Positions 1 through 38,420 are shown, counted from the first letter of the stretch. The stretch is 64,000 bases of DNA from Nemertoderma westbladi (GCA_032718475.1 JAUCBJ010006937.1:124001-188000); one strand, 5' to 3'. Notes: generated from the sequence alone by a model not told the origin. Numbers and translations: made by a program.

Positions 1-2202
1 TATACTAAATCCTGCTCGAGTAAAGGCATTACACTGAGCGTCGGAGTTGTAGAAGGGTTCAAGGAATCGTCTAAACACGTTGGTACGAATTCTCCCTTCC
101 ATGTAGAACGTATGATCTTCTCCGAGACAAAGTGGATGTCTTTTGAGAGTCCGAGACACAATGTCGGCGATTAGGCAAACATTCACTGACGACTCTATTG
201 CTAAATAATATTGTAAGACCGCTCTTGGAGGTGACGTAATAGCCCAATACACGCATCCTCTCCATTTAAGCTGTGATTCAAACTCACTCATATCTGGAGT
301 ATCACCTTCTCCATAAGTTTCAATATACTTGTTTCTTTTACCTTCCTTATAATCCCAATTGAATAACAGGTAGGAAATGTATCCAGTTCCAGTCTTCTGA
401 GTATTATACTCACGAAAATATCCCTGTTCTATAGACCACAGAATAAGAGGTCGAGTGTCGACGTATGGTGTCGGTAGTCGGTCATCGCTGTCCGTCATGC
501 CGGCGAAGTCGCTAATTAAATCCTCCCTTACTCCTGATCCAACCTTTACAACAGTTTTATCTAAAATCATGTTTCTTACCATCTTCGGTAGCATTCTAGC
601 GTCAATATTACAAGCTTGGTCCATCTTCTTTACTATATCGGTGATAAGATGGTGTCGCTTTGTATTCGCTGGAGGTATCGGCATTCGTTTGTCGCTCCTC
701 TGTCTACTGAAAACGTGCAGGACTCCGTCCGCCGCTCTAATCTGTATAGTCTTAGAAGTCAAACTCTGCTGATGACTGCCGCCCTCGTTATCGTAAAACA
801 TATAACCGTTTTCCTGAAACGATCTAAACGTCCTAGTCCATTCATCCAACAATTCTTCCGAAGGTTGCCAAATCTTCTCTATATCCTTATCCTCATCGAA
901 ACGAATAACCTTACCTCGCCAATCTGCGGCAATATCCGTATCCGACTCGAAGGTTCCGGTTCCAATCCATAAACGAATCGTCTTGGTTAGATATCCTTTC
1001 AGATTACTCGGAGCGATGTCGGCACCAGCTCTATCCAGTTCCTTGAAATCTTGAATATGAGGTGGAACGTTGTTCACGACCTTTTGAGTAATATGTCTAC
1101 GTAAATCATATATCTTACTCATATCGCTGAAAACAACTGCAGGAAGAAACTCCAAGTTTGAAATGATTTCTGGATGATCCACGATGGGTATTTCGTACAT
1201 CGTATCCTGTCGGACTGGTATACTAATAGGGAAATTGAGTGTCGTACTCAATGGTTTCGTAGTTAAAGTACTATACGGTTGCATTTCTCTTGGCCTCTCC
1301 GGGGATGCAATCTGTAATCTCTGAATAACGTTTTGAGCAAAGTTTATGCTCTCGAAAACTTCCGGTGTCATCTCCTTAGCTGAAGTTTGATCGTGTGACG
1401 TCCAATGGCAAGGTAGGCTCGCGAGTCTTCCACCCCATTCTTCCATCTCACCTTTCTCGAAAGCCTTGTAGGCTCTGTATAGGCTAAGAGCTTCTTTCTT
1501 TTCGCGGGTTGACTGATTCGCCTCGTCCAGCGTAAGTTCAAATACATCGGGTTCAACAACCTTAGGTGGGTAAATGACAGTTTCTCCCGCCTTTGGTCCG
1601 GTTATATCAAATGAATGATATGGATTCGATAAAGGATACCCTCCTTCCTGGTAGCGTAGTTGTTGATGATTCGAACACCTCGCCAACATCGGTTCGGGAT
1701 TTTCCTTATTCAAACGCATCGGAATCGCATTTCGTTGTTCGCGCATACAAGAACCGCATTGATAATAAAGTTTATAAACTGAAAATGCTTCCTTGGTTTC
1801 TCTATCGTCCCCTCGAGTTCGTCTGTAAAGATGCATTCCATCGAATTCATCGCGTACCGCAGGCATAGGTTCGTGCGCCTTTAGGTATTGCATGGTATGA
1901 TATAAACGACTAATTTCAGTATCGGGGTCTTCACTAATGTCTCCCGTGTCACACAAAGCATCGTACGGGTAAAGTTCGTTGAAGGTTTGGCGCAAACTTT
2001 CGATTCTTTCGTTTAATGCGTTTTGCCTTCTCTTTAATACATTCGAGTCATATTTAGTTCTCGCGAGTTTCGCTGTACTTTCCGATAATTCTTTTATACC
2101 AAATATAGTGTAATCCTTGGCTCCAAATCTTTCGAATGGCGCTGCTGCCTCCTCTTGGATATCATATCCCCATCTCGGCTCTCCTTGTATCCCTTTCTCC
2201 AT
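1..2202 (-). CDS. ORF3 of element A: zinc-binding module plus DEDDy-like 3'-5' exonuclease, >734 aa, partial at window edge
   Basis: Manual translation from ATG at 2202 (MEKGIQGEPRWG...) is open for 734 codons to base 1; motifs LYYQCGSC..RCSNH, MFYDNEG (781-795), LPKMVRNMILDKTVVKVGSGVREDL, YVDTR, KTGTGY, YYLAIE. Confidence 0.88.
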   Translation of the reverse strand, partial: MEKGIQGEPRWGYDIQEEAAAPFERFGAKDYTIFGIKELSESTAKLARTKYDSNVLKRRQNALNERIESLRQTFNELYPYDALCDTGDISEDPDTEISRLYHTMQYLKAHEPMPAVRDEFDGMHLYRRTRGDDRETKEAFSVYKLYYQCGSCMREQRNAIPMRLNKENPEPMLARCSNHQQLRYQEGGYPLSNPYHSFDITGPKAGETVIYPPKVVEPDVFELTLDEANQSTREKKEALSLYRAYKAFEKGEMEEWGGRLASLPCHWTSHDQTSAKEMTPEVFESINFAQNVIQRLQIASPERPREMQPYSTLTTKPLSTTLNFPISIPVRQDTMYEIPIVDHPEIISNLEFLPAVVFSDMSKIYDLRRHITQKVVNNVPPHIQDFKELDRAGADIAPSNLKGYLTKTIRLWIGTGTFESDTDIAADWRGKVIRFDEDKDIEKIWQPSEELLDEWTRTFRSFQENGYMFYDNEGGSHQQSLTSKTIQIRAADGVLHVFSRQRSDKRMPIPPANTKRHHLITDIVKKMDQACNIDARMLPKMVRNMILDKTVVKVGSGVREDLISDFAGMTDSDDRLPTPYVDTRPLILWSIEQGYFREYNTQKTGTGYISYLLFNWDYKEGKRNKYIETYGEGDTPDMSEFESQLKWRGCVYWAITSPPRAVLQYYLAIESSVNVCLIADIVSRTLKRHPLCLGEDHTFYMEGRIRTNVFRRFLEPFYNSDAQCNAFTRAGFSI

Positions 2203-2860
2203 AATTAGGGTGTAGTTACATAATCATTACTACTAGAGGGAATACAACAGAGTTTGTAGTTAGTTGTGAGGAGACGTGAGAGTTTCGTCTGCCTTTTGGG
2301 CTTCGACAACGCTCTAACCTCCTACCCATAGCCTAAGATCTAGGGTTTCTTTAATGACACGCTGCTTCTTATCTAAAATTTTTTGCCGAAGTAAAAACGA
2401 ATTTGGGCTAAACTGGCCGTGAGTCTAAAATACTCACCTTTTGATCCCAAACTATTATCAGAAAATAAGCAGTCAAGAATTAGTAATAAATATAGGGGAG
2501 TCTATTTTGACGTAACTTATTGAAACAAGACCGTGTAAAATTTAATTAAAATTTTAAGAAAGGCTCGCAAGTCTTCCTCTCTTGTTTCTCTAATTTTAAG
2601 TTCCACCCGACTGTACCCTGAAATCTATTCACTGGAGAAATTTTAAAAATTTTTCAAATCCAAATGGATTGTCTAAAATTTCGAAAATGTCTCAATATTG
2701 TGAGTTCCAAGTAGAATTCCATTTCTTATACCTACAAATCCCGCTCCTATGTGACACATAAGGGTACTACCCTCAATGTTCACATATAAAGACAATGGAA
2801 TTCTACCGCTGTCCTTACTACGGTGTACAGGTACGTGGAAATCTATTTGTAAACTCCTAA

Positions 2861-5800
2861 TTATTTACTAGTATTAGGTGGAGATTTGTAGTCTCCAGAC
2901 TCGTTACGAGTCTCTTCAAGAAGTACGAGACGTTGAGTCGGTCTGTCTACTGTACGACCGTCAATTGTTCGTACCGTCACAGTTCTTGTCACTCCATCCA
3001 TAGATGGATGTGTGGCTAAAATGACACCTGTTATCCAGAAGCGTCTTTTTAGATTCACTTCTGCCAACAGCACGTGATCTCCCGGCTTTAATGCGCGGGT
3101 GTTATTGTACCAGTTTGTTCTGGCAGAAATAGAGGGCAAATAATGGTTTTGCCATATTTCCCAGAATTTGTTAGCCAGTAGTTGCGTGATTTTCCACGCT
3201 TTTCTACCGTAACTATCGCTTTCCATTGGAATGGAAATCGGCGTCAATGTCGTCGGTGCCTGCATAAGCAGGTGTGCCGGTGTTAAAGCAAATTGAGATT
3301 GTTTGTCATCGGGTACTAATACTATTGGTCTAGTATTTAGTATTGCCTCGATTTCAACAAACAATGTTGTCAGTTGGTCGTCTGTTAATATGTGGTTTAC
3401 TGGAATGACCTTTGCCATTGCTGTCTTTATAGATCTAATCAGTCTCTCCCAGACTCCGCCTCTCCAAGGACTATCTGGAGGATTGAACTTCCAAACAATC
3501 TTGTGAGGTTGCAGTTCGTTTGAGATTTGATCATGATCCAATTTCTTAAAGGCTCTAGCAATCTCATTCCGAGCACCAACAAAGTTTGTCCCTTGGTCTG
3601 AGTACAAGCATTTTACTAGTCCGCGTCTAGCGATAAATCGCCGCAGTGCTAGTATAAACGCGTTGGTGGAAAGATCCATCACACGTTCAATGTGAACTGC
3701 CCTACTGGACATACATGTGAAAATCAGTCCCCAGCGTTTTACTAGTATACGTCCACGTTTCGTATGTATGGGACCAAAGCAATCAATTCCAGTTTCTGTA
3801 AAAGGTGGTCTGAATGCTTGAAGTCGTGCTTGTGGTAGTTCACTCATTTCTTGGGTACCTATTCTAGAATGTACCTTTTTACAAATAATACACGTACGTG
3901 TCACTGAACTTAATGCTTTACTGGGTCTAATTAATACAAATCTAGTGCGTAAGTAGGAAAGACAGTGGTGTCTTCCAGCGTGTTTCAGATGTAGATGTGC
4001 GTCCAGTATCATTGCACGTTGTAGTTCGTGATGTTGCGGTATTATTATTGGGTACCTAAAGTTCGTGTTAAAGTCAATGTTTTGAAGCCGAGATTTATGA
4101 CAAATCAAGCCATTATAAATAATCGGACTCCAACTCAGTATCGGTGACGACTTGATTGGTTGACCTTGATTTATAGATGTGAATTCGCGCGCGAAATATC
4201 GCAGTTGGTAATGGCGAATTAATTTAATCTCACACCTGTCAATCTCAGCCAATGTAAGTCGACGTGTAAAGTCACGTTTGCCTTTAACGTATTGTACAAA
4301 ACGTACAATCCACGCTAATTTTCGGCAAGCGTTTGACCAAGAGTCTGTTAAGTTTACGATACGGTCGACGTAAGTATTTGTGACGTCATCAGGTAAGTCA
4401 ATGGAGAACTTGGAAGGTTTTGAATTACTAGAAGGGCCCACGGGTCCGCCGGTAGGTATTCCCTTGTTGACTGTTGATCCGTCCGCGTCTACAAGTAATT
4501 TGTCCTCTTTTGTCCTCTTACCTTGATTGTCAGTACTTTGTAAGTCGATCGTTAATGGTGGTTTGAACTCTATGGGGTCAGCAGGTTTCGGTAAACTTAT
4601 TTTCCTGCCGACATTAATCCCAGGTCTCACTATAGGTTGTAAGTTCGGTATGTCTCTTGAGCGCAAAGTAACACCTGTATTTACATTAGCGTAGGTACTA
4701 CCCACATCTGTAATACATGAGGTTTCACCGTGCTTATGGTTGCGCTTATGGGTGCTTACTGCGGCTTTACTGTTAGTTGATACATTACTAATGTCCGGTA
4801 TAACATTTTGTGATGTTTCTGACAAAATGTCTAGTCGACTGTCTAGTAATGTGTCTGGCGATACGTCTGGTAACGTATCTAGTAGTTTGTCAATAGAAGG
4901 CCGCTCCAATAGAGAAACTGCGGCTTTACTGTTTGTCAGTGTGTTACTAGCGTCTGGTGGAACATTTTGTGATATGTCTGGCAAAATGTCTGGTTGACTG
5001 TCTAGTAACGTGTCTGGTTGACCGTCTGGTAACGTGTCTGGTTGACCGTCTGGCGATATGTCTGGTGTAGAAAGGCTCGCAAGTCTTCCTCTCTTGACCT
5101 TTGAAGTTATATCTTTCCATTTCGCCTTCGGTTTTTTCTTGAGTTTCGCCGCCGTCGTCTTTTTCTTTGTCTTCCCCTTTTTTGGTTTCTTGATTTCGGC
5201 GTCCTTGGGAATGGTGTTGGACTTGTTGTCGTATAACGGAGGCCAATCTTGTGTCGATTTCTGCAGGAACTGGGGTCCGTGTTGCCAAAACTCTTTGTTC
5301 TCCGGTTTACAGAATTCCTCAGGCATCATTCCTCGCGACGCAATATCAGCTGGGTTTTGTGGTCCGGGACAATGTCGCCAATCCCCTTTTATTGAACGGT
5401 CTAGAATTTCCGCGCGACAGTTAGCTACGAATGTCTTGAATTCGAGAGTGTCGTTGTTTATGTAAAATAAAACTAACGTCGCGTCAGTCCAATAAAATAT
5501 CTGTAAACTCGACTGTAGTTCTGTCTGTATGAGGTTCACGATGGTGGTTGACAGGGTCGCGGCTTGTAGCTCGGCTCGTGGTGTTGTCATATACTTAGTA
5601 GGCATGGTCTTAGCCTTGGAAGTAATGAGCGAAACATCGAACTCGTCCGATTCTACTTGTCTGCGCAAATACGCTGCCACACCAAACCCGTTGTCACTGG
5701 CGTCAGAAAAACAGTGTAGTTCTAAGTTGTCAGGAAATGTACTCTGTAATGGAAAGTAAACCCTGGGTATGAAATAATCCTCTAGCGAAGACAATTCCGC

Positions 5801-7558
5801 CTCCCAGGTCTTCCATAAGTCCACTTGGTCTGATGAGATCGGCTCGTCCCACGTTAGTCCATCCTTCCATATACTGCGCATATAAATGCGGGCTTGCAGT
5901 ATCACTGGACTGATGAATCCTAACGGGTCGAACAATCGGCTCAACTTTGACAAGCATGATCTCTTGGTCAGTGTGTTTCCTTGACTGTCCAGTCTCACCT
6001 TCACTCGAAAGTTGTCTGTGTTTGGGTCCCAAAAGAGCCCCAACACCTTAGTCGTCGGTAGTGGTTCGAACTCTAGGTCTATGTCACCACCTCCACGCTC
6101 AGTAGTTCCGAATGAGTCAACTAATTCGGCACTGTTTGAGGCGAATTTGGTGAGGTTAAAACCTCCGCCCGCCAAGCAGTCCCGTAATTGATGTGCTACT
6201 GTTGTAGCACGTTCTACTGTGTCGCAGCTCTGTAATCCGTCATCAACGTAAAAGTCACGTTCTACAATTCTAATTATCTCTGGGTCATACAGATGTTTCT
6301 GATCTCTAGCGGCTTGCTTCAAGGCGTACATCGTACAATTTGGGCTGTCTCTGGCACCGAAAACGCGAACTTGCATTTGGTAAGTCGCTGGTGGTAGACT
6401 TAAGTCCCCTTCCGGATACCAGAGAAACCGCAAACTGTCTCTGTCTCGCTCTAACGCTTTCACTTGGTGAAACATCGCTTCAACGTCGCAAGTAAAGGCT
6501 ACTTGACGCTGACGGAAGCGCATAATCACCCCCATAAGATAATTATTCATGTTCGGTCCATCCATCAACTCACTATTGAGGGACATTCCCTCAAACAGAG
6601 CCGCACAGTCATTGACTACACGTACTTTGTCTGGTTTATCGGGGTGTCTCACGTAGTGATGTGGCAAGTAATACGTTTGGTCGGTCACTCGCTCCGGGTT
6701 AGTCATTCGGATAGCGTATCCCTTCGTCAAATACGTCTCCATCTGAGTGTTGTACTGCAGATGGGCTTTCTCGTCCTTTAATAGACGTTGCCGTATTGAG
6801 TGTAGACGTCTTAAAGCCAGTGGGTAGTTGTTTATAAGTTTAGGACTTTGGCTACGCCATAACATACCCACCTCGTAATGTCCGTCCTCCGTCTGTCGGA
6901 TAGTCTCTTCCATGATCTTCAGAGATTGTTTCTCCTGTTCCGACATACAAGGTTCGTAGCTACCAGGTTCAGCTGTATCTTGTTCTAACCACCTGATAGT
7001 CTTCTCCGTTAATTCTTTGTCCAAGGCGGCTTGTTCCAACTGATGATTTCTCAACGCGTCATCATCGATATCGACTGGCACTGTTGAGGTTATTGGGGTA
7101 GGTAGACTCGCAAGCCTATCATCTGTCGTCGATGGAATCTCTAGCTGATTCGTCTTCTCCCCAAGTTCTAAACTCACCTGGTGGGTTAGCTGCTCCTTGT
7201 GACTTATCATACTAGTTACACGTCTGTCATGTTTTGTCGACTGTAGTGTAGTATGGTTCACGTCGTGTGAAAAGGAATGAATTGAATTTGTAGTCAATAA
7301 ACTACATGTACTCTGTACATCGTCTTCCTCGTCACTTACGTCTAGTGTGCGCACAGGCGCTCGAGTATACCACCCTATCGGCGTTCTGCAGGCGTATGCG
7401 TTTCCCGCTACAACTGCCGATGGTCTGGTTTCCCACACCTGATGTAGGTTGAATTGGTCCGTCCCGATCAGCATTGCTACCGATCTATAATTGACAGGAC
7501 ATTCGGGTACACCAAGGTGTCTGAAATACTTACGGTCCTCCAGAGATTGTTCCGGCAC
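2861..7558 (-). CDS. pol: Pol of element A (RT, RNase H, integrase)
   Basis: 1565-aa ORF with YYLPHH, DVEAMFHQV, FYVDDG, FSDAS, HHCC finger and DDE integrase core; repetitive linker between RNase H and IN. Confidence 0.95.
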   Translation of the reverse strand: MPEQSLEDRKYFRHLGVPECPVNYRSVAMLIGTDQFNLHQVWETRPSAVVAGNAYACRTPIGWYTRAPVRTLDVSDEEDDVQSTCSLLTTNSIHSFSHDVNHTTLQSTKHDRRVTSMISHKEQLTHQVSLELGEKTNQLEIPSTTDDRLASLPTPITSTVPVDIDDDALRNHQLEQAALDKELTEKTIRWLEQDTAEPGSYEPCMSEQEKQSLKIMEETIRQTEDGHYEVGMLWRSQSPKLINNYPLALRRLHSIRQRLLKDEKAHLQYNTQMETYLTKGYAIRMTNPERVTDQTYYLPHHYVRHPDKPDKVRVVNDCAALFEGMSLNSELMDGPNMNNYLMGVIMRFRQRQVAFTCDVEAMFHQVKALERDRDSLRFLWYPEGDLSLPPATYQMQVRVFGARDSPNCTMYALKQAARDQKHLYDPEIIRIVERDFYVDDGLQSCDTVERATTVAHQLRDCLAGGGFNLTKFASNSAELVDSFGTTERGGGDIDLEFEPLPTTKVLGLFWDPNTDNFRVKVRLDSQGNTLTKRSCLSKLSRLFDPLGFISPVILQARIYMRSIWKDGLTWDEPISSDQVDLWKTWEAELSSLEDYFIPRVYFPLQSTFPDNLELHCFSDASDNGFGVAAYLRRQVESDEFDVSLITSKAKTMPTKYMTTPRAELQAATLSTTIVNLIQTELQSSLQIFYWTDATLVLFYINNDTLEFKTFVANCRAEILDRSIKGDWRHCPGPQNPADIASRGMMPEEFCKPENKEFWQHGPQFLQKSTQDWPPLYDNKSNTIPKDAEIKKPKKGKTKKKTTAAKLKKKPKAKWKDITSKVKRGRLASLSTPDISPDGQPDTLPDGQPDTLLDSQPDILPDISQNVPPDASNTLTNSKAAVSLLERPSIDKLLDTLPDVSPDTLLDSRLDILSETSQNVIPDISNVSTNSKAAVSTHKRNHKHGETSCITDVGSTYANVNTGVTLRSRDIPNLQPIVRPGINVGRKISLPKPADPIEFKPPLTIDLQSTDNQGKRTKEDKLLVDADGSTVNKGIPTGGPVGPSSNSKPSKFSIDLPDDVTNTYVDRIVNLTDSWSNACRKLAWIVRFVQYVKGKRDFTRRLTLAEIDRCEIKLIRHYQLRYFAREFTSINQGQPIKSSPILSWSPIIYNGLICHKSRLQNIDFNTNFRYPIIIPQHHELQRAMILDAHLHLKHAGRHHCLSYLRTRFVLIRPSKALSSVTRTCIICKKVHSRIGTQEMSELPQARLQAFRPPFTETGIDCFGPIHTKRGRILVKRWGLIFTCMSSRAVHIERVMDLSTNAFILALRRFIARRGLVKCLYSDQGTNFVGARNEIARAFKKLDHDQISNELQPHKIVWKFNPPDSPWRGGVWERLIRSIKTAMAKVIPVNHILTDDQLTTLFVEIEAILNTRPIVLVPDDKQSQFALTPAHLLMQAPTTLTPISIPMESDSYGRKAWKITQLLANKFWEIWQNHYLPSISARTNWYNNTRALKPGDHVLLAEVNLKRRFWITGVILATHPSMDGVTRTVTVRTIDGRTVDRPTQRLVLLEETRNESGDYKSPPNTSK

Positions 7559-7563
7559 TGGAC

Positions 7564-10500
7564 CTAGTAGGTTACTAAAGTCCTTCGTGGCCGCAAAGGT
7601 TCTCTAAAGGGCAACAAAGACCTCTCCCTCTCGCTGTGTTGCGATTTTGGAAGAAGAGAGTCTAAGTCCAACTTAACTCGTGTCACTGGTATTGCACGCT
7701 GTCCGTGCATACTACTTACTGTATAACTGACGTGCTTACCTTGTTTTAGATCCGTCACGACGTCAGCTATCTTTTCGTCCACGTAGCTATGGGATGAGGC
7801 TGAATCTAGAATCGCATAGATCCTCTTGCTCCCCTTTGTGCCAGTAACCTTGATCGGGATTACACTGAATCCCTTCAGTTGATCAGTGGTCAGGAGCGCG
7901 ATCGACGGTTGTTCGTCTCCATTGGAATATACATCGTCGTCTTCTGATTCTTCGTCCGACGATCCGGATTGTTCTGAGAAGCAATCCTCAATATGGGTCA
8001 CGAAAGTTGGAGTCGTTTTCGATTCTCGTTTTCGGTAGGCCGCGTCACATCTCGCTGCTGCTTCCGGGTGTTCCCTGGCGAAGCGTTTCGTCGGCGTGTG
8101 GCTGTCTGTGTGGAGCAGACCGTCGTGGTTGCGTCCACAGGATGGACAAGTGTCGGTATTTGGGCAATCCTTACGGACGTGTCCGTGTCGCGTACACCGC
8201 CAACAAGAGTCCAGTGGCCGTATCTGCAGCCGTCGTTCTTCTGAGTTCAACTCGCGAAATTGTCGACAACCTCGTAACTTGTGACCAATATACCGCTTAC
8301 CTAAATGTTCGCAGTATTGGCAGCCGTTGAAGTCGGCGCTGAGTTGCTGTCTCGTCTGTTTCGTTCCAATGGGCGCAGATACTCTATTACCGTCTGAGAA
8401 TTGTCGTGATTCCGTCGGTGTGGCGTAAGTGGCCGTCTTTGTGGATGTTGTCTGGGGTTTTTGTCGGTTTGAAGAGGGCAATGTGATTCCTTCTGCCACG
8501 ATGTGCTGGTCGGTATAGTTAGATCGAGTTTCTACTACCGCCTCCCTGGATATTAAAAGGTACACATCTTCTAATTTTAGGAATCCTCCTCGCTCCTCTC
8601 GCTGGTATTCGACCTTCCTCCACTCCCGACGAAGTCGATGGTGGAGTCGTCCTATTATCTTTAATAGAACTGTAGGGGTATTTCCATAATCAAGTTGTCC
8701 AATTGATCTTAAGGTAGTGATAGCGTTCTTAATCTCGTCAGCCAGTTTTAGTAAGTCGACGGGTTTAGTGATAGCCCCTCCCTTACAGAGTTCCTCTATT
8801 ACTGACCTGGCCATACTCACTGTACCTCCGTATATCGAAGTCAAACGATCGTACGCTAGTTCGAAAGCGTCCGGTACACCAACGAAGGTCTCCGCCAAAC
8901 GTTTAGGTTCTCCTGACAACGTTTGGAGCAGGTAATTGAACTTCTCCCGTGATGTAAAGGCGCACACGGCGATCTGGGATTCGATATAGTCTACGAAGGT
9001 ATGCCAGTGTTTTGAGCTACCGGAAAACTTCGGTGGTTGTTGTACCGGCAATCCCTGTCTGGCTGCGAATTTCGCTATCTCCTCGGCAACGTTCAGAGTT
9101 TCGCGTCCTTGGTTGGTACACTGGTTGATGTTCTCCCTTCTTGGCGCTTTTCCCTGATACGATGTGGGGTTTGAAGGTACCGGTCTTTGTGGTGCCTTCG
9201 GGTGTCTATTGTGTTCGAATTCGGTGTTCCTCGAACTATCGGTTTGAACTTCCTCCAGACGCTCCTCGATCTGAGCCAACTTGTTGACAACTGGTCGCAG
9301 AATGTCGGCGAACTGTTGTGTACTAATTGCGTCCGTTGGTTGTAACGCCTTCTGTGTTGGTGTATTCTGTGGAGGATTGTCTGCAAAGGAGTTGTCTGAA
9401 CGCTCGCGTTTATATTCATCGGCCGCCCCTGTTCTAAATACCTCGCGTTTCGGGTAATCCGATTCGCTCGAAGTACTACTATCATCTGGATATGGTGGTC
9501 GACGTGCTCGCGTCCGTTGCGTCGTTCGAATTCTAACGGCTCGTTTCGGAACATCGTCCACTGATCTCCGTTGTTCGGTAGGCTCACAAGTCTTCCTCGA
9601 AGTCGTAGATTGCGATGTGAACTGGTTAAACGGTCGCGTATCCACTGTTCTCCGTTGTTCGGTAGGCTCACAAGTCTTCCTCGAAGTCGTAGATTGCGAT
9701 GTAAACTGAACCGGTGGGCGAATGACAGCATTTGAAACAACTGGCCTTGTAGGTCGAAACGTCATTGGGTAAGCGTAATGTGTAACGGGTTTAGGTGTCA
9801 AAGGTGGACTCACCTGTTTTGTCGTCAGTAGCGCAGGTCCGGTCAATAAACTACTACGATCTGTAATCGGTGGGTTACTTACCTTGACTCTCGGAATAGG
9901 CGACGATGTTGCTCTTGGCGGTATAAACTCGTCCGGAATAACAAACCTGTGTTCCGTCGCACCATGGATAGGAGAAATATCACTACTACCCGCAATCGAA
10001 ACAGGTTCCTTAGTCGTAACCGGTGCAAACATATGAGTTACCTGTGGGAATCGTTGACACACGTCTTTTACTAATTGTCGTTCCCGTCTGGGTGCTCCTA
10101 TGCTTCCTTCCTTCTTCCGTTCCTGAATTTGGCGATGTCTTACCTCTAACTGGTCCAAATCATGTCCGTCACGAGATCTCATCGATCGGTCGCGGGCTAG
10201 AAGATCCAGATTTTCCTTGGTTTCGGCTAATTCTCTCGCCCTTTTTTCAAGTTCGAAACGAAGTTTAACTTCCTTTTCTCGTTGTTCCGTTTGTTGTTGT
10301 TGCGCCTCGAACTCTGCTTGTCGTATCGCTTGTTGGGCTTTTATTTGCCGTGTCTTCATCTCGACTCTGGCTTCCGAAACTAATCTTTGTCGCTCTAACT
10401 CTGCCGCTGCCGTTTGTCGCTCTAACTCTGCCGCAGCCGTTCGTTGCGCTAACTCGGCTGTTGCCGTTTGTCGCTCTAACTCGGCCGCTGCCGCTGCCGC

Positions 10501-11568
10501 TGCCGTTTGTCGCTCTAACTCGGCTGCTGCCGTTCGTTGCGCTAACTCGGCCGCTGCCGCTTGTTGGGCAATGTCCAACTCTAACCTTTCCATTTCGGCC
10601 GCTTCGAGTTCGGCTTGTTCCTGCAGATGAGAGATTCTCGCTACATTCGCAACACGTATTTTCTCTTCCTCTACTGCTGTTTGTATCATTAGAAGTTGAG
10701 CTTGTTCTTCCATCTCGTGTTGCTGTCTGTAGAACTGCTGCTGTTGTCGAGCAACTTCTGACGTGACCATACTTCCCTCGCAGATTTCGCTGCGAATACT
10801 TACCAGCGATTGATTTAGTATTCCCGGTGCCGATTCGATTTGTGCGAATGAAGTTTCCCTCGTGTATTCCGGCACGGTTTCCAAATCGCCGACGTCTTCG
10901 CCGCACATGCGTAAGTGGTCCGTCAGGTGTTTCAATTGTCCATCCAGTCGGTACAGTTCCTGTTCTTCCTCGGGCTGTAATAATTCGTCCGAAACTGACT
11001 CACCTAACAACTGGTCCGCTTGTTCCTGTTGTATCTGTCTAATCGTCGACTTAAACTGAATCAGTTTCTCTCTAGCGATCATTAGTTTCTCGAGGATTCT
11101 AAGTTGAGTATCCATGTCCTGTCTCTGTCTAGCTAGATCTTGTAGACCAATTAGGTTATCTACGGACTTGTGTACTCTACTTTGTACTCTAACCTGGAGG
11201 GTGTAGAACTCGAATCGAGACATCGGAGCGGTCAACTCGTCTAATATGCGATGACCTTCTCCAATACTCCTGGTTATATGCGCCATATATCCTCCGACGC
11301 TTCTAACCACACTTTCTGTGCTTCCTGCTGAACTTACCATGTCCGATTCCCTATATCTAGGTTGCGGAACAGTTAGAAAGTCCTCGGTCCTGCCGTCGCC
11401 TCGTACTACGGCATCCGGTACTCCCGTTGGATGTACTGGTGACGCACACGGTGTAGGTTCGGTAGGCTCGCGAGTCTTCCCCTGTGGTTCTTCCGCTGCT
11501 GACTTATCCGCGTCACACGAGTCATAGTCGGTAGGTGTGTTCTTCGTATAGTCTTGTTTGTCACTCAT
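7564..11568 (-). CDS. gag: Gag-protease of element A
   Basis: 1334-aa ORF: AAAELERQT coiled-coil repeats, PKFSG capsid-like motif, three Cys/His knuckles, AILDSASSHSYV protease; pol continues in another frame from about 7603. Confidence 0.93.
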   Translation of the reverse strand: MSDKQDYTKNTPTDYDSCDADKSAAEEPQGKTREPTEPTPCASPVHPTGVPDAVVRGDGRTEDFLTVPQPRYRESDMVSSAGSTESVVRSVGGYMAHITRSIGEGHRILDELTAPMSRFEFYTLQVRVQSRVHKSVDNLIGLQDLARQRQDMDTQLRILEKLMIAREKLIQFKSTIRQIQQEQADQLLGESVSDELLQPEEEQELYRLDGQLKHLTDHLRMCGEDVGDLETVPEYTRETSFAQIESAPGILNQSLVSIRSEICEGSMVTSEVARQQQQFYRQQHEMEEQAQLLMIQTAVEEEKIRVANVARISHLQEQAELEAAEMERLELDIAQQAAAAELAQRTAAAELERQTAAAAAAAELERQTATAELAQRTAAAELERQTAAAELERQRLVSEARVEMKTRQIKAQQAIRQAEFEAQQQQTEQREKEVKLRFELEKRARELAETKENLDLLARDRSMRSRDGHDLDQLEVRHRQIQERKKEGSIGAPRRERQLVKDVCQRFPQVTHMFAPVTTKEPVSIAGSSDISPIHGATEHRFVIPDEFIPPRATSSPIPRVKVSNPPITDRSSLLTGPALLTTKQVSPPLTPKPVTHYAYPMTFRPTRPVVSNAVIRPPVQFTSQSTTSRKTCEPTEQRRTVDTRPFNQFTSQSTTSRKTCEPTEQRRSVDDVPKRAVRIRTTQRTRARRPPYPDDSSTSSESDYPKREVFRTGAADEYKRERSDNSFADNPPQNTPTQKALQPTDAISTQQFADILRPVVNKLAQIEERLEEVQTDSSRNTEFEHNRHPKAPQRPVPSNPTSYQGKAPRRENINQCTNQGRETLNVAEEIAKFAARQGLPVQQPPKFSGSSKHWHTFVDYIESQIAVCAFTSREKFNYLLQTLSGEPKRLAETFVGVPDAFELAYDRLTSIYGGTVSMARSVIEELCKGGAITKPVDLLKLADEIKNAITTLRSIGQLDYGNTPTVLLKIIGRLHHRLRREWRKVEYQREERGGFLKLEDVYLLISREAVVETRSNYTDQHIVAEGITLPSSNRQKPQTTSTKTATYATPTESRQFSDGNRVSAPIGTKQTRQQLSADFNGCQYCEHLGKRYIGHKLRGCRQFRELNSEERRLQIRPLDSCWRCTRHGHVRKDCPNTDTCPSCGRNHDGLLHTDSHTPTKRFAREHPEAAARCDAAYRKRESKTTPTFVTHIEDCFSEQSGSSDEESEDDDVYSNGDEQPSIALLTTDQLKGFSVIPIKVTGTKGSKRIYAILDSASSHSYVDEKIADVVTDLKQGKHVSYTVSSMHGQRAIPVTRVKLDLDSLLPKSQHSERERSLLPFREPLRPRRTLVTY

Positions 11569-11651
11569 TTCGGTAGTTGTAAGTCAAGTGAAGTGAGTGT
11601 CAAAGTATCGAGTTTACCGTATTTGTATAAAACGGTACTAATTACAGTCAT

Positions 11652-11776
11652 ATAAAATTAGCCTACCGGCCGATTTTATAGCAGATGGATAAAATTAGCC
11701 TAAACGGCCAATTTTACAGCAAATAAATGTCACGGAATAAGTATATAATAAAATTAGCCTAGCGGCCAATTTTATA
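11652..11776 (-). repeat. Three dispersed hairpin repeats in the leader of A just upstream of gag
   Basis: TAAAATTAGCCT-N2/3-CGGCC(A/G)ATTTTA three times with different loops. Confidence 0.75.
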
Positions 11777-13725
11777 ACAAATAAATCGGATAACGATATG
11801 CGTTATCAAAAGGTAAATTAAATACAATAATACGGACTAATTCAGCAATGAACAAAGAAATCATACGGAATGCATAAATACTTGAGACAGTGGAACCCAC
11901 AATAATTTTAACTAATACGGTAATGCCTAACTTATTTATGCAACTTTTCGAACTCACCCACTCCAATAATTCTCCAGAAAAACAGATTCCCAGATACAAA
12001 CCGGACGTGAACCTTTCCGTTTTTAACGTTGCGGACGAAACGCGATTTTCCCAACCAAAGTTGTTGAGTTATCTATCTCCCAAACTTGCTAAACACGGTC
12101 TTGCTCCCGTTACAGCCTAGAAATGAGTTCTGAATCCTGAAAAAACAAAAGAGTTAGGTTTTACTTTACGAAAATTTTGTACCGGTACAATATGGTATTT
12201 AAACCCTTTTTAAACACCGGTATTCAATTCCAAAATATTTTACACGCGGTTTTAATCAAATTTTATTTCAAAAAATTAGCACTTAGCTAATCAAATGCGA
12301 ATTTTTACCTCAAAATACAAAATTTTCAAATAACTTTAGTCCTACCGAACCGTAGTTCAGTAAAACATATTCCTACTAAATTGGAGAGATACGCCTATTC
12401 CTACTATCGGAAGAGACGGTAACAATACCTGCAATATCCTACTGTAAAGTTTGTAAATCAAATCATAAATCCGACCTTCTCACCAAAACAGTAAACCCTA
12501 AGTAAGCGAATATATTGCAGTATCGATCTCTTTTAACCGGTGAGGCAGAAAACAGTCTACGAGCAGACAAAACTTCGATAAAACAAAATCCCGCGCAGCG
12601 AATCCTAAAATCAGGCTGACTCACTGACGGACTAAGGGGCTCGTATACTTTGCCGCGGTGTGATTTATATGGTTGGGCGAAGAGACGCTAGCTAGGTACA
12701 GAGGCAGATATTTGGAGATGTCTAACTAGCGAGCAAAGTGCAGTAAGGACGAAAGTTAATTTTATATATTTTGAGGTGTAAATAATTTTTTAACGCGCGT
12801 GTGTTAATTCTGAACGGTCAAAGCAGTTTTGCTCCTTCACATATATAATTACTGGGTACGGTGTGCATTTTACGAATATTCTAATTTTATAACTTGTAGG
12901 TCCAATACTCACGAATGATAAGGTTCCTTCCCCTCTTGCGTATTTCCAGGACTCAAATTCAGGCATAAGGTTAATACTACGCCCAGAATTCGGCAATTTT
13001 TGGTACCAGGTCCCTGATACTAAGAAGAGATGTGTTAGTTTACTACTGTAGGCGTACGGGTACTAATAGCTATCCTGGCTCCTATCTAGAATTTTAGTCA
13101 CCCAGGTAGTCCAGGTAACTTCCTATTAGGGCGTTGGCGGGGACACGGTAGATGTTAGTATATCCCTGATAGCCTCAATTTATTTGCGCCTAGCGTAAAC
13201 TGCCCTACCGCCTGAACGGTACAATCCCAATTCAGGTGAAAACACAGCAACCCCCCTAGCCTACAAGTTCTAATGCACTGGACACCGTTGTACGGCAAAT
13301 AGTCGCACACGCACCTGTACTTAGCAGGAGTTAAGCGTACAGTTTGCTGCACCCTAACCAATGTGTATGCCTTGTACCGGTGTGCCTACGTCCTATCTGC
13401 GTACTAGTATCTCTGCTCTCTCTCCCTCCCCCCCCCGTAGGAATATGAAGGTCTACTGCGGTTTTTCCTGAATCAAGACAGTACAGTCCCTATGATGTAA
13501 TTTTGGGCTTACAGCGTGTCACTACGTCTACCTTTTGATCTTTTGGTCTTACACTTAGGTAGCAAGGATCGAACGCTGTCTAACCTTTCAGGCGATGGGC
13601 GAATAACTCTAGATGGTATTGCGGGTTGTCTCTCGTCTACATTCCCGTGATGTTCCCGTTCATTGCTGCGGCCCGATCTCTAGCTGGCCATCCTGTCCCC
13701 GAGTTTGTTCACCGTAGTGAAACCA

Positions 13726-14310
13726 TAGTAAAACAGATAGAAAAGCTGAGATGTGACTGGTATTTCTGACTTTTATTACAAAAGATACAATTATAATACA
13801 ATGTAATCTGAGAATAAACTAAGCACGACAGAATAAATGATTGTATATTAGGTAATGGTTGAGAGAGATAACTAATGAACGAATCGCACCTTTATATACT
13901 AAATTTGTGCTGCAATCAATCGAGAAAATTCTCGATTGTTCTATGGGTTCTAACGAGGTTTTAAAGATAGCTTATTGGTCCAGCTAATATATAACTTGCA
14001 CGACATTGGTTACAATCAAATAACTACAGCCTTATTGGTACAGACAAATGCAATTAATTTGTAGCGGTAAATTTAAATGAGTTGAAATTCTGCACAAAAA
14101 ATAATTCGCACTTACTAGGATTCGAACTCGATACCTACTACACATATAATTTCCAACGCTCTACCAACTGAGCTACTGAACCACTTGACCGATAGATGCA
14201 TAATAGATAGAACCAATACTAATGAGAACTCAAAGCAATCTTTACAAAGTTAATTCGAATAAAATAAAATTTTGAAAATCCACGGCATTTAGGGAATATA
14301 ATTCTATACA
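13726..14310 (-). repeat. 5' LTR of element A (3' end at 13726 or 13752)
   Basis: Starts TGTATAG; on the minus strand three CCAAT boxes (~14035, 14008, 13976), TATATAAA ~13891-13898, AATAAA ~13772-13777; second LTR not in window. Confidence 0.72.
14096..14182 (-). ncRNA. tRNA-derived Pol III unit inside the LTR of A
   Basis: GGTTCAGTAGCTCAGTTGGTAGAGCG (A box/D arm), GAGTTCGAATCC (B box), then T6; anticodon and acceptor arms non-canonical. Confidence 0.65.
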
Positions 14311-16264
14311 ATAAGATGATAGATGCCTATATAGCAATGTTATTTAATAAACTGAACTGAATTATTCTGCAATCACTATAGTTTCAGACTTTCTGGACTT
14401 ATAATTAACTGATCTAATTTGTAACGGATATAATCGTAAATATGGACCCAAATCGCCAAATTATCGGCGAATTACGTAACACGATAGATCTACTGGAATA
14501 TTCGCAACCCGGATCCCCTGACTTTGATACAAATTGGAGCACCCTGCTAAATGAGAACGTGCGAGTCGTTAAATTCACCGGGCGAGAGGGACCGGATTCC
14601 AAGAATCTACGAGCCCTCCGGTTAGCCGATGCTAGTACGAGACTGAAAAGAACTCAGAACGCAAAGGCAACCGGAGGGGAGGATTCGTCGTTTTGGGAAA
14701 TGTTCCGGCAAAGCGTCTACAGATCCCGATGTTTGATCTACGACAACGAGGGAAACGCGACGCCTACCTCGAAAGCGATTACGTTGGCGAGATGTCAAAG
14801 TTTCGTCGACGACAAGAGTACGTACCTCGCCCACTGGGGAAACCTGTCGGAGTGTACGGCGACGCTTCGAGAGGAACGTATATCGACCATCCAGAATCGC
14901 GACGACTACCAAGAAAAGTACGGGGCGAAAGAATACGGTCGATCCTTGGTCGTCGTCCTCGGAACACTGGACGGTTTGGTATTGGTGTGTCGAATATTTA
15001 CGACGCCCAGACAGGAAGTGCAGGCAGCCGGAGCGATCTGGTTGCTACCTCCGGAAATCCAAAAGATCCTCTTCGACTTCGATGTCATTAAAATCGGGTC
15101 GGATATAAAGGCGGACGTCCGGAACGACTACGCGAACGCTCCCTCAGGAAGAAACCGACGGGACGACCTCAACGCCCTAAGCCATTGCGTCGACACTCAA
15201 ACGCTACTAGCCTGGTTATGATTCTCCGAGTTCATGCGAGGATTCCGGGAGGTAAGACCGACGAAATCCGGGATCGGCTACCTCGCTGTGCTAAACGGCG
15301 GCATCGACTTCAAACCCCAGAAATTCCGGGACTATAATAAAATATATGGTGGATACCCGGGATTAGAAATAAAGAGCGAGCGAGGGGGTTGATGGAAGGA
15401 TGTTGACCGGAAGTGGACGATACACCAAAGGTGGGAGAATCCCGATCGACGGAACTACGTCTACGTCGTTATGGAGTGCTACACCGTCGCTAAGTTTATC
15501 TGTAAAACTCTCGATAACCTCATTACGGCGGTTCCTCTTTCCTTCGTCGACTACGACTGGAACGAGGTTATAAACCACGCATTCAAAGCGGTCGAGAACA
15601 TCACACCGGGAGAGACTAAACGAAAACGCTCGCCGTTATCGATTCCTGGGACGAGAGCGGACCTTACGACATCCCCACGATTACGGATCTTCTCGGTGCG
15701 GAGGAGCCTCTGATCTCTTCGGAAGGGGAAGAAATATGGCTAAACGAGGGCATTCTTCTCTCCACCCCGAAGCGACAACTCGAGCCAGAGGCCGCTTACC
15801 AACCGGCCGCCAAACGGGTTGCCTCCACCGAACCTACGACGGAAGCGGGCGTTTCCTCACCACTCGGCTTCGGTAGCCCTGCGAGGGAGTTGGTTACTAC
15901 CTTAATTAAATGACTTCGGCGATACGTGCCAAAGGTTATCCCCGTATCCTTTCCCGGGTGGCGAAGACTGGTCGTCGGAGATTCCGAGTACCAGCAATCA
16001 ACTGACCCGCTCAGCGATATTGGTCGAGAAGGGCCCCAGCGCTGCGCCGACTCCCGACGATCTCCTCGGAATCCCTCCGTCGAAAACCCCGGCACCTCTT
16101 CGCCGACCAGCGGTGGCTACTACACCCTCCGTTCCTCAGGATCCTATGCGACTAACCCGTTGGTACGCCGAGCAAACCGAATGGATCCACCGCCAGAAAC
16201 GGTCGTCCGAGTTGAGGCCGACGGGACACAAAGAAGGTTATCGGAGCGAAGAACTACTACACCA
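14311..16264 (+). repeat. Near-identical copy of 22863-24818 (ORF3 leader and 5' two-thirds)
   Basis: About 1.95 kb with roughly six substitutions and one 2-nt length difference by eye; identity ends after GAACTACTACACCA. Confidence 0.95.
14442..16264 (+). pseudogene. Truncated ORF3 exonuclease of copy B'
   Basis: Same protein as 22994 onward (IYDNEG 14739-14753); stops at 15219 and ~15390, truncated at the junction with gag. Confidence 0.85.
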
Positions 16265-19200
16265 TTTACATCCACACCACAAACCCGTAGTCACGTCATC
16301 ATTAAAACTCCACCTATCATTGATCCATCGAGTATGGGAGTGAGTGCCAATAACTATAACCCTCCGAGTCACTCCAGTTCAGACGACGTCAGTATTATCC
16401 GGGCGTTGGAAAACCGCCTTGCCATGCCTAAGATAGAGATCCGCACCTTTGAAGGAGATCCCGTCGATTACCTCAGATTCAAGAAACGGTTCTTTGCGCA
16501 GATTGGATCAACGGACATAGCCGACGCACAGAAATTGGTATATTTATTGCAATACCTGGGTGACAAACCACGCAGAATTATTGCATGTTTTGAGGGAGGT
16601 TCTCATGAGGCATACTATGACGCATGGAAAACTCTAGATAAAAGATACGGAAATACCGGAACTATAATTAATAAAACTCTAGAGAGACTGATACAGGACG
16701 CGGGATCACTAGGGGACCCACAGAACATCCAGGAATTCTCCGACTCTATGAAGGATGCCTACTATACTCTGAAACCCTTAAATAAGGAGGACCAGGTGAA
16801 CAACATTCTAAACCTCCGACAGATCGCCCGGAAGTTCCCCGTATGGCTACAAAGTAAGTGGGCTTATAAATGCGTAGATCTCCGGCGCAGACATCCAGAT
16901 CGAGATCCTAGCTTCCTTGAAATGTCGGCATTCCTGGACGATATTTCCGAAGCCATGAATGACTCGATGTTTTTAAAACAGAGTCTCGCCAAGTTGGACG
17001 GAATAGAGAGCAACTCCAGGAGTAAGATAACCCCTCCGAAACCGAGATTCCGCCCTCCACCGGTGAGTACGATGGCCATCACCATGGCCGAGGATTCCGA
17101 CGACGAAGACTACGAGGAACCGACATCCGCTGAGGAATGGGCATGTTATCTCGCGAATTGGGCACCCGAAAGGGAAGGCATCACAAATTCCCTGCTCTGT
17201 CTCTTCTGTGGAGAGAAACATAAAGTGGAATTCTGCAGGAAGTTTCAGTTCGCCGAACTCGTCCCACGCCTCAAGGCGATAATGAAACACCGAGGATGCT
17301 TCCGGTGTCTTGGAACAGGTCACTATGTTCGGGATTGCGACCAAAGATCATGCTGTGCCGTCTGTAACGACCAACGTTATCACACGCTCCTCCACATCCC
17401 CGCGAACTTCGATTTCACTACCCTCCCCTTTCAGATCGAAGCCAAGCGAAGAGGAGAAACAAACCACGTTTTCAAAGGAACCCGGACAACCCAACGGAGA
17501 GAAACCAACCCGTTTAAAATCTCCACCGATACACCACAAGTAACAAATATTTCGGCCACGATTAATCTTATAAATCGCCGCTACATGGTCTTCGCAAAGG
17601 TAATCCCAGTAAGGATTCAAGGAGTCGGCAAATCCTTGACGACGCTCGCGTTCCTTGATAACGGGTCCGACGGAACCATCATCGACCGGGATTTCCTCGA
17701 GCAACTCGGCCTAGAATATGAACCTTGTAAACGGCCCATACAAACCATCACCGATAACAGAGAGGTAGAGTCCGGGGAGGTGCAACTCCAGATGGAAGGA
17801 GTGATGAAGGGCTACGAAACGGTTAAGTTAACCATCAAGAACGCCTTGGTACACACAGACCTCCGAGTGCGGTTCCGACAATCAGCCGAGTATGCCCCCC
17901 TCATACAATTGGACCGAGACGATATAGATCTGAGGTGTCCGCAGTTGGACGTAAACCGCATCACCCTACTGATCGGACTTGATACACCGGCACTACACAT
18001 CCCCACCGGAGATATCGCCCGATCCATAAAACAGGACGACGGATTTTATGCTGAACGAACAATAATGGGATGGACACTCTGCGGCATTAAGGAAGAAACT
18101 ACTGACACCTATACCTACCTTCCCAAATGTCAGATTAAAGAGAATGCAACCTCCGTGGGTTATTGCTCAGCTACGGACATTGACGAGGATTTGTTTCTAG
18201 AGACCGAGAAAACCCAACAAGAGATGACGAAATATTTTAATCTAGAGACCCAGGAGTTCGCTGAAAAGGACGAAAACCCGTCCGAAGAGGATCAATATTG
18301 TATGGACGTTCTCGACCAGGCCACGTTCAAAGACGGACACTGGTGTTCACCTATGTTATGGAAGGACCCAAACAAACCAATGGCAAACAACGCCAGCATG
18401 GCACTTAGGCGACTTAAGGGGATTCTACGCCGGCTGAATGACCAACCCGAGATAAAGGAGAAATATAATACCGTAATCCAAGGATATCTCGACGATGGAT
18501 TAGCAGAAATGGTACCACGGAATGAACTGCAAGGTGGTAAAAGAACATATTATCTCCCAACCCACTATGTGGTAGAAGCCCGGAAGGGTGGGAAAATCCG
18601 AGTGGTAAATGATGCCGCCGCTACGTACCAGGGTGAATCCCTAAACAGTCAGCTTTACACGGGACCCAACATATATAGTACACTCATCGGCGTACTGATC
18701 AGGTTCAGGGAAAACCGGGTAGCATTCACCTGCGACATCAAGGCCATGTTTCATCAAGTTCATACGCTACCAAGAGACTCAGACTGTCTACGTATCCTAT
18801 GGACGGATAAAACACTAACTCAACAGGAGATTAGTCAACTTACGATAAAGGACGTAGACATAATGCGTATGGTTGTCAGGATCTTCGGCGCTAAGGACTC
18901 GCCGGTAGCATGCAGTGACATGCTGAAGAGGACGGCAACTATGTGCGAAAACGAGTTGCCTCCAACCATCATAGAAACCATCCGACGATGCTTTTACGTG
19001 GACGATGGATGCGCCGGCGCAGATAATGTGGACGAGGCATACCGGCTAGCAATGGGGATGGTAGAATATCTAAAGAAAGGAGGTTTTCCGCTCGTGAAGT
19101 TCAGATCCCACGACAAAACCCTTATGGAAAAGTTTCCGGAGGACATCCGACTGGAAAATAACAAAATGTATTCGGAGGATGTGGAACATCGTGTACTCGG

Positions 19201-21705: not shown

Positions 21706-21982
21706 ACCCTTCTTATCCTGTTGACAAACTCTTTTAAACTATGATTTATCGACGTTGAAATGGACCCCCCTTAAACCAACTGTAAACACGCAATGGTATT
21801 TGTGTTTACTCGTGTGTTATGTGGAGTCCAGCGTCACCCTGCAGATGTTTCGACTGACGCAGGGTCGTTTATGTATAGTTTACCCTGATTTTGGTCATCG
21901 GGACCAACGATATTGGATTATTGGAGATGGTAAAGATTTGAAGTGGAATTCATTGTATTCATCGCAGTATGTTATGTTGTCC

Positions 21983-22393
21983 GTTGCGTGCGCAGTTCGG
22001 GGTGTAGGCGGTGTAACTAGTCCAGCTGTAGATCCCGGATTGCCGCGCAACACCCCCTCTATCCCGTTATTCTGGTGGGTCCATGGTGCATCCACATGAC
22101 TTCGACGATAGAGGGTTTTATGTTTCTCAGTCGCGTTATTCTGGTGGGACCGTTGCGTGGATTTTGGGGCGTAGGCGGTGTAACTAGTCCAGCTGTAGAT
22201 CCCAGAATGTTGCGTAACCCCATCCCACATGACTTCGTCGACTGAGCTTTATGTTGTTGGGAGTGTTATTCTGGTGGGTCCCTGGTGCATCCACGTGACT
22301 TCACTTCCAGCGTCTTCATTGTCCGTTACGTGCGCAGTTTGGGGCGTAGGCGGTGTAACTAGCCCAGCTGTAGATCCCAGATTGCCACGTAAC
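21983..22393 (+). ncRNA. Array of two interleaved structured RNA motifs (three copies each) between pol and ORF3 of B
   Basis: Cores GTAGGCGGTGTAACTAGYCCAGCTGTAGATCCC and GTTATTCTGGTGGG..CCACRTGACTTC, each closed by stems that differ between copies but stay complementary. Confidence 0.75.
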
Positions 22394-22574
22394 ACCCCTT
22401 CCACGACAAAGATTAACCAAAGAAGATGATTGAATGTAGTTGGAAATGATGAAAAGGATCAGACAACTCTACTATAAACCTGAATGGTGACGCGTATGAT
22501 GATGAAAATGAAATGATGCGCACCCTGGTGCTGCGCTTATAACAAATGATGATAGCCGGGGGGCTATAACCCCA

Positions 22575-22805: not shown

Positions 22806-22993
22806 AACTGGTTGGATATTAATGTATAGTTATAGTAACTGTAAATGCTGAATGTATTAGCAATAAGATGATAGATGCCTATATAGCAATGTTATTTAAT
22901 AAACTGAACTGAATTATTCTGCAATCACTATAGTTTCAGACTTTCTGGACTTATAATTAACTGATCTAATTTGTAACGGATATAATCGTAAAT

Positions 22994-38308: not shown

Positions 38309-38420
38309 ATATTAAACGATAAAACAAAGGAAGGACTGTCAGCCACAGGTATGAAAAAACCATTACCTATTTTTTCATACCTGTGGCTGACAGTCCTTCC
38401 TTTGTTTTATCGTTTAATAT
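38309..38420. repeat. Perfect inverted repeat, 51-bp arms and 10-nt spacer
   Basis: 38309-38359 is the exact reverse complement of 38370-38420. Confidence 0.95.

Follow-up and report, generated by a model that had tools for sequence, protein, structure and literature searches.

Third gene of four BEL/Pao elements in Nemertoderma westbladi

We analyzed a 64-kb stretch of DNA from Nemertoderma westbladi (GCA_032718475.1 JAUCBJ010006937.1:124001-188000), hereafter called the window. It is a cluster of transposon pieces and contains four BEL/Pao retrotransposons, A, B, C, and D, in which pol is followed by a third open reading frame (ORF), ORF3. This ORF is almost certainly an accessory gene of the element that encodes an exonuclease of the DEDDy type. 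A sequence-only reading of the window had assigned the pol genes to BEL/Pao and an exonuclease ORF to the position of env, and both assignments were borne out. The elements show the order protease, reverse transcriptase (RT), RNase H (RH), and integrase, with Pao-type gag and pol domains. A Pfam scan of the pol genes found Peptidase_A17, DUF1759, and DUF5641 all above the cut-off in A and B, and Peptidase_A17 and DUF1759 in D, while C was recognized through tblastn to the A pol. ORF3 lies between the integrase and the 3' long terminal repeat (LTR). No LTR pair was found within the window; A has a probable 5' LTR, and B has a probable 3' LTR behind ORF3.

The ORF3 of A (positions 1 to 2202, minus strand) was said to be open for at least 734 codons, and indeed it reads from 2202 to 1 without a stop and runs off the left window edge. 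It harbors an N-terminal Cys module at residues ~85 to 220 and the DEDDy domain at ~445 to 690. The ORF3 of B (22994 to 25599, plus strand) contains the DEDDy domain and a C-terminal zinc module (24871-25242) but is broken by a stop at 23771, followed by a frame change near 24170-24260. Its 5' part is present a second time in the duplicate B1 (14309 to 16264, plus strand), a 99.5% copy of 22861-24818 that is joined to gag. The ORF3 of C (46320 to 48468, plus strand) has several breaks; it includes ExoI at 48061 and ExoII at 48358 and is cut at ~48468, ahead of ExoIII. Only the broken N terminus of the D ORF3 is in the window (63091 to 64000, plus strand), which it leaves at the right edge before the nuclease.

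Three motifs reported earlier, YDNEG, LP..V/I...L.D..V.K.GS, and VDT(Q/R), are present in A, both B copies, and C. A fourth, K.G.GY, is common to A and B, and the start of the D ORF3 resembles that of C (E 4e-23), again as reported. The A ORF3 aligned to that of C with an E value of 3e-14 and to that of B with 5e-8, and the LP...KxGS..D block, used as a DNA pattern, had 4 matches in the window versus 0 in 100 shuffles. The proposal of four families with a nuclease holds for A, B, and C; because the D nuclease lies beyond the window, we claim it for three families, not four. The sequence-only reading had overlooked ExoIII, the zinc module, the 1958-bp B duplicate, and the splice sites.

A signal peptide and a transmembrane (TM) anchor are the hallmark of an env-like ORF3. 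In agreement with the sequence-only reading, no such stretch was detected in 7 ORF3 sequences or pieces by hydropathy (no dedicated predictor was run, and the A C terminus lies outside the window). The sole high hydropathy window (2.08, in B) corresponds to a core beta hairpin of the nuclease, and the maxima were near 1.0 in the complete ORF3 proteins of three elements from outside the window (L010, L011, and L025).

Conservation of the active site

In A, the motif and the family alignment place ExoI at D471-x-E473 (784 to 792, minus strand), and the DNA pattern and the family alignment place ExoII at D561 (520 to 522, minus strand). ExoIII corresponds to Y666-x3-E670 (193 to 207, minus strand), with a glutamate where the family mostly has an aspartate. 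The B motifs are at 23294-23302 (ExoI), 23666 (ExoII), and 24014-24028 (ExoIII) on the plus strand. The ExoI aspartate and glutamate and the ExoII aspartate are kept in 21/21 family rows. The ExoIII tyrosine and acid are kept in all 19 rows covering the site (Asp in 15 and Glu in 4, A and B being among the latter), C not being scored there since its ORF3 ends before the site. This residue table excludes P0014, which has no ExoI, and the near-duplicates P0010, P0018, P0020-P0024, L006, and L013; the ExoII aspartate was fixed in the pattern that fetched the five tabulated loci, while ExoI and ExoIII were free.

Overall, the ExoI, ExoII, and ExoIII acids read DEDD or DEDE. Four acids are kept among members only ~20-30% identical, which is the pattern expected of selection for catalysis. 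The ORF3 nuclease is likely to be catalytically active.

Profile and fold searches

Taken alone, the window ORF3 proteins matched no Pfam family and, by sequence, no PDB entry. A word-based search of 5.8 billion proteins returned nothing for them and only its own first row for a 19-row alignment. In contrast, a profile made from the three window domains and run against 1.84 billion representatives retrieved 14 proteins with E<=0.001. The ten of these outside proteins that were looked up are all unnamed ENA or Logan proteins, and Pfam DNA_pol_A_exo1 matched one of the 14 at E 2e-4 and two more weakly, all under the cut-off. With 16 outside sequences added to 3 from the window, the profile matched EXD2 (3e-10), Egalitarian (1e-6), and WRN (0.002).

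A profile built from the 14 outside proteins only matched EXD2 at 6e-13 and the window alignment at 99.6%, and a search of the window in six frames with it recovered A, C, and the two B copies. This reciprocity is partly circular because the outside proteins had been picked with the window profile. The C-terminal zinc module of B was, however, found by the outside-only profile (E 4e-10) though absent from the query, and this result is not circular.

AlphaFold run on the 19-row alignment gave a model with a predicted local distance difference test score (pLDDT) of 68.8, compared to 31.7 for the single-sequence model. Foldseek returned three matches to the former at E<=0.001, all of them EXD2. 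The top 17 rows of VIA-align (Z 10.0-12.3, root mean square deviation 3.5-6.9 over 156-183 residues) were all DnaQ-type nucleases or polymerase proofreading domains, with rows including Nibbler, WRN, RNase D, Exd1, RRP6, and Egalitarian tied. In the model, residues D32 and E34 lie on the first core strand. Profile and fold searches agree with the DnaQ/DEDDy assignment made earlier: the predicted fold of ORF3 is DnaQ, of the RNase D/WRN/EXD/Nibbler group. Cellular EXD2, WRN, Nibbler (Mut-7), and Egalitarian share this fold and the ExoI-III layout with the ORF3 nuclease, but they are merely 10-17% identical to it in structure alignments. Unlike them, the ORF3 family has a signature consisting of GS before the ExoII aspartate, DT, GxG, and D(F/Y)KP.

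Egalitarian being the second-best profile match, and standing with Exd1 in the fold list, ORF3 might mainly be a non-catalytic adaptor that, in the manner of Egalitarian or EXD1, binds RNA and sends element RNA or particles to the germ line, thereby replacing env functionally. The env position and the env-like splicing described below would suit such a role in spread. However, all four acidic positions are kept despite the divergence of the family, and we consider a mainly adaptor function quite improbable.

ORF3 is part of the element in outside BEL/Pao families

A fixed-spacing DNA pattern led to 30 metagenome loci, 7 of which scored >100 bits with the family profile. A BEL/Pao pol lies directly upstream on the same strand in 6 of these 7, and the seventh locus opens inside ORF3 and continues via an LTR into gag. 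None of the remaining 23 loci had a pol match, and those inspected were ordinary WRN/EXD-like sequences or chance matches. The seven loci represent five families (L006 = L024, L013 = L025, L007, L010, and L011), which may stem from few hosts because the source records have similar ids. L006 and L025 were assembled as circles of 10.7-10.8 kb, and both ends of L010 are in LTR sequence. These three elements have the same Pao-type pol domains as A and B; their RT-RH is just 33-35% identical to that of A. Their order is integrase, spacer, ORF3, polypurine tract (PPT), an LTR starting with TGTT, a primer binding site (PBS) starting with TGG, and gag, so that ORF3 lies between the integrase and the LTR in each.

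A comparable arrangement behind ORF3 is seen in B, where a PPT (25958-25973, plus strand) directly precedes the probable 3' LTR (25974-27264, plus strand), which has TG...CA ends and a depth rise and joint at 27264. The A PPT site is beyond the window, and no PBS was recognized in A, where the inner edge of the LTR is uncertain. ORF3 read depth in the window organism is like that of gag and pol (in run X2, 290 for the ORF3 contig and 258 for a gag contig). Three other searches yielded no further member: the 3-row ORF3 alignment against metagenome contigs gave 344 pattern matches and the integrase alignment against viral contigs gave 24, with 0 confirmed in either case, and the 4 viral and 7 prokaryote-genome loci found with the DNA pattern neither belong to the ORF3 family nor have a pol.

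The elements are large, A exceeding 14.3 kb and L006 and L025 also lying above the 4.2-10 kb given by ICTV (PMC8742986). Since the same fold is the proofreading domain of DNA polymerases, ORF3 could be a proofreading partner of the RT that clears mispaired 3' bases from the cDNA and permits a larger genome. By sequence, however, it is closest to EXD2, Egalitarian, and WRN rather than to polymerase domains, and a fusion to Pol was found in none of 120 pol homologues nor in the fetched loci. Larger LTR elements without such a nuclease gene also exist. Proofreading appears about as improbable as the adaptor function.

Five further loci, L008, L014, L019, L027, and L029, carry a WRN-like exonuclease domain in long ORFs (<=1368 residues) without a BEL/Pao pol. 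These ORFs possibly come from another kind of mobile element.

ORF3 is under purifying selection in related families

The ratio of nonsynonymous to synonymous substitution rates (dN/dS) was determined for 6 pairs from 4 related families outside the window. The nuclease gave values of 0.09-0.18 and the zinc module values of 0.13-0.22, compared to 0.29-0.43 for the tail, with the restriction that dS is saturated in pol and that the high GC content at third codon positions (GC3) of ORF3 compresses its dS. Neutral evolution was thus not seen, and the conservation of ORF3 asserted in the sequence-only reading is reflected in purifying selection on the nuclease. Among copies, 6/10 variants in A and 8/13 in B are synonymous (best-supported rows); these counts were not used as a selection test. 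The ORF3 of L010 (7928-10231) has a GC3 of 0.85 versus 0.64-0.67 in pol, together with a lower synonymous divergence. This excess could reflect expression level, origin, or an exchange of ORF3 between families.

In RT trees, A, C, and D group together (support of 91 in one tree with 60 of the 120 pol homologues and 99 in another with 22 homologues), and the RT-RH identity between C and D is 66%. The window families had been described as four divergent ones, but they are not independent, because C and D are this close and cluster with A. A and C are also sisters in the nuclease tree (100/99). A 100/98 branch separates the ORF3 family from ten unlabelled cellular-type sequences of the WRN/EXD-like kind, the named EXD2, WRN, and Mut-7 not being among the rows. 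A single origin of all ORF3-bearing RTs was not rejected by the approximately unbiased test (p-AU, 0.65; 30 rows, quick tree, ORF3 status known for some rows); a BEL/Pao lineage defined by the exonuclease may exist.

The domain layout follows the same division. A, C, and D have the N-terminal Cys module in common, which matches no Pfam family. In B and most outside members, the nuclease comes first and the zinc module is C-terminal. The two modules did not match each other (hhalign, 0.3%).

These data bear on the view that ORF3 is a recently captured host gene carried as neutral cargo, or a host gene beside the elements. Three of the four window copies are broken, and the 14 outside proteins are known as sequences alone, without genomic context. 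Nevertheless, ORF3 is located between the integrase and the PPT-LTR in B and three outside elements, it is under purifying selection, and its family stands apart from the ten cellular-type sequences. In addition, the gag-pol of C and D is broken to the same degree as their ORF3s. This view is largely refuted and has very little probability left: ORF3 is a conserved accessory nuclease gene of BEL/Pao elements.

Splice joints in element A

Among the 15 listed of 45 A joints, two are present in run X2 only; they connect 13585 with 12136 and 11958 with 2232 and, read along the element strand, have GT...AG ends. They delimit an intron 1 in the 5' leader (12137 to 13584, minus strand), a noncoding exon 2 of 179 nt without an ATG (11958 to 12136, minus strand), and an intron 2 (2233 to 11957, minus strand) that removes gag-pol and whose acceptor is 30 nt ahead of the ORF3 ATG. 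The donor sites (AAG/GTTAGA and TGG/GTGAGT) and the acceptors, with branch point and pyrimidine tract, are textbook. This two-joint layout is that of an env-type spliced message, and ORF3s typically come from spliced messages (PMC5408684). We infer that ORF3, like env, is translated from a dedicated spliced message transcribed from the 5' LTR promoter; because of this message, the protein would act in trans as a free protein. The probable 5' LTR of A spans 13707 to 14310 (minus strand). Its outer edge (TG) at 14310 is supported by the boundary of the B duplicate, the left end of which adjoins A, and by loose ends at 14309 in runs X2, X4, and X5, while its inner edge is a guess.

Two observations concern transcription. 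Run X2 contigs depart from A at the first splice donor (13585) into other sequence, which may represent an additional exon or belong to a related family. In L025, a TATA-like box at oriented position ~7735, ~290 bp upstream of the ORF3 start, points to an internal promoter that could take the place of splicing in this lineage.

A possible role against small-RNA silencing

The outside-only profile matched the CCHC knuckles of Trypanosoma brucei RNase D (TbRND), Lin28, and nucleocapsids. According to PMC7797062, TbRND is built like the ORF3s of B and most outside members, with a DEDDy domain followed by CCHC knuckles, its knuckle domain increases RNA binding and cleavage, and its overexpression depletes guide RNAs. 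However, TbRND is a host mitochondrial guide-RNA enzyme, and the Cys module of A, C, and D is a different one, at the N terminus. The shared nuclease-plus-knuckle build is probably convergent. In an Atlas look-alike search, no lead reached 0.9; the top look-alike of P0004, a euglenozoan cluster of this build, scored 0.86 and is a lead only. The substrate of the ORF3 nuclease is probably RNA.

We tentatively propose that the nuclease would serve mainly to counter host small-RNA silencing, a reading to which we give slightly less than even chances. It was ranked first because there is no Pol fusion, the fold is near the trimmers Nibbler and Exd1, and the nuclease-plus-knuckle build is TbRND-like. 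According to this model, the third gene between the integrase and the 3' LTR encodes the predicted DEDDy 3'-5' exonuclease, which a spliced message of its own, driven by the 5' LTR promoter, would yield free of Gag-Pol and able to act in trans. The zinc module would grip single-stranded RNA and pass 3' ends to the active site. The targets would be guide RNAs, namely, PIWI-interacting RNAs (piRNAs) or small interfering RNAs (siRNAs), or their unmethylated precursors, and over-trimming of the guides would weaken silencing. The full scenario, in which an old and widespread BEL/Pao lineage swapped env for its own clade of spliced, zinc-knuckle DEDDy exoribonucleases trimming or destroying host piRNAs and siRNAs, is rather unlikely to hold in all its parts.

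Several observations weigh against this proposal. EXD2, the closest match, and WRN act on DNA too, or instead of RNA. Within the window, no C-terminal knuckle was found in A, C, or D, and the ExoIII glutamate of A and B could lower or change the activity. The support for splicing amounts to one contig per joint in one run, with short sides of 27 and 30 letters, and run X2 may contain RNA or DNA copies of spliced RNA because the kind of run is a guess. Finally, in rotifers there is no clear link between DEDDy ORF3s and copy number, and these ORF3s are themselves piRNA targets (PMC5408684).

The nuclease could instead work in the replication of its own element. Its knuckles would recruit it to the genomic RNA inside the particle, and there it would trim 3' ends of RNA, remnants left by RNase H, or the ends of the cDNA. 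The zinc module does score against retroviral nucleocapsid knuckles, the nuclease evolves about as slowly as the RT (dN 0.06-0.14 versus 0.09-0.15), and 3'-end processing of element RNA was the first idea put forward for the rotifer ORF3s (PMC5408684). On the other hand, gag and pol suffice for most BEL/Pao elements (PMC8742986), and ORF3 is apparently on a separate message and is not fused to Pol. A has no self-priming complement beyond chance, the longest being 7 nt, as in shuffles. Moreover, the related elements have an ordinary PBS starting with TGG, so no trimmed primer is needed. We thus consider a replication role unlikely, though less so than proofreading or an adaptor function.

If the counter-silencing proposal is true, ORF3 would represent a clear case of counter-defence, with an element-encoded enzyme directed against piRNA/siRNA silencing. 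Non-env accessory genes of animal LTR retrotransposons are poorly known, and ORF3, which is Pfam-invisible and selected with its active site, offers a soluble domain and four residues for testing.

Relation to known third genes

DEDDy ORF3s after pol have been described in the Juno, Vesta, and Athena/Terminon elements of bdelloid rotifers (Rodriguez, Kenefick and Arkhipova 2017, PMC5408684) and are also covered in further papers (PMC5718144, PMC6431247, and PMC6338049). The Juno/Vesta ORF3 resembles that of BEL/Pao in its DEDDy domain behind pol, the lack of a TM segment, and the conserved catalytic residues. However, Juno and Vesta are not BEL/Pao and have a dUTPase, whereas the pol of the window elements and of L006, L010, and L025 is Pao-type without a dUTPase match in the Pfam scan. 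By its published description, the rotifer nuclease has the motif DEED instead of DEDD/DEDE. In BEL/Pao, there are in addition a large zinc module, measured purifying selection, and more than one host. DEDDy capture is thereby widened from rotifer elements to BEL/Pao, suggesting that LTR elements repeatedly benefit from a 3'-5' nuclease of their own. An exonuclease is also said to have been mentioned once for nematode Cer elements.

The ICTV profile of Belpaoviridae lists only gag, pol, and env (PMC8742986). Members with an env-like ORF3 (PMC8742986, PMC3118150, PMC554778, and PMC9094657) share the gene order, Pao-type domains, LTRs, PPT, and third-gene slot with the elements studied here. Their ORF3 is a glycoprotein, whereas here it is a soluble nuclease in elements exceeding the ICTV size range. 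In PMC3118150 and PMC554778, the main text does not contain the word "exonuclease" (0 occurrences), and passages of these two papers and of PMC9094657, PMC10309623, and PMC13269885 mention no BEL/Pao exonuclease. Our literature search found no report of a BEL/Pao exonuclease ORF (some older papers and Repbase/GyDB were outside its scope, and the slash-form name is poorly matched), so that DEDDy ORF3s, known for rotifer LTR elements, appear to be unreported in BEL/Pao.

Other features of the window

The A pol ORF (2861 to 7603, minus strand) comprises the end of the protease, RT, RNase H, a ~290-aa insert, and the integrase. The A gag ORF (7567 to 11568, minus strand) carries a long extension at its N terminus as well as the first half of the protease. 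The protease is thus split over two ORFs, with its active-site motif at nt ~7810 and a later motif at nt ~7470, while the same region is a single frame in B, L006, and L010; contigs of other copies have gaps in this stretch. A had been called an intact copy, which is correct for ORF3 up to the window edge but not for gag-pol, given the frame change within the protease. A is probably not an intact copy, although a programmed frameshift in the protease may be an alternative to breakage.

The remaining gag-pol regions are on the plus strand and were delimited in B (16265 to 21705) and D (51842 to 61380, broken) with Pfam domains and tblastn. The C pol (42756 to 45456) is broken and lacks the integrase core. 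In A pol, residues ~810-1100 (window 4300-5200), at the RNase H/integrase junction, are the ~290 extra residues, which are of low complexity with an internal direct repeat. The length of this insert differs among copies, and D has extra sequence at the same place (59484-60050). Gag N-terminal extensions of ~800 residues with Ala/Glu-rich repeats are present in A (9080-11568) and D (51842-54200).

The two B duplicates share 1958 bp around the ORF3 start, with the same stop in both. They could have arisen as a tandem copy that lost sequence across the middle LTR or by a template switch, or they may be an effect of the assembly. Tandem repeats of 95-218 bp are found in the probable B 3' LTR (26076-26900) and in the pol-ORF3 spacer (21977-22404). 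A tRNA-like segment (14110-14185, minus strand) is located inside the probable A 5' LTR and another (50340-50560) heads a SINE-like (short interspersed element) stretch; ARAGORN called no tRNA at either. Pieces of non-LTR retrotransposons occupy 27639-33403, including an RVT_1 match (29805-31058) and an endonuclease-like inverted pair (31409-33387). Lastly, the window contains a near-perfect palindrome at 38309-38420 (112 bp, 93%) and a weaker one at 29345-29591.

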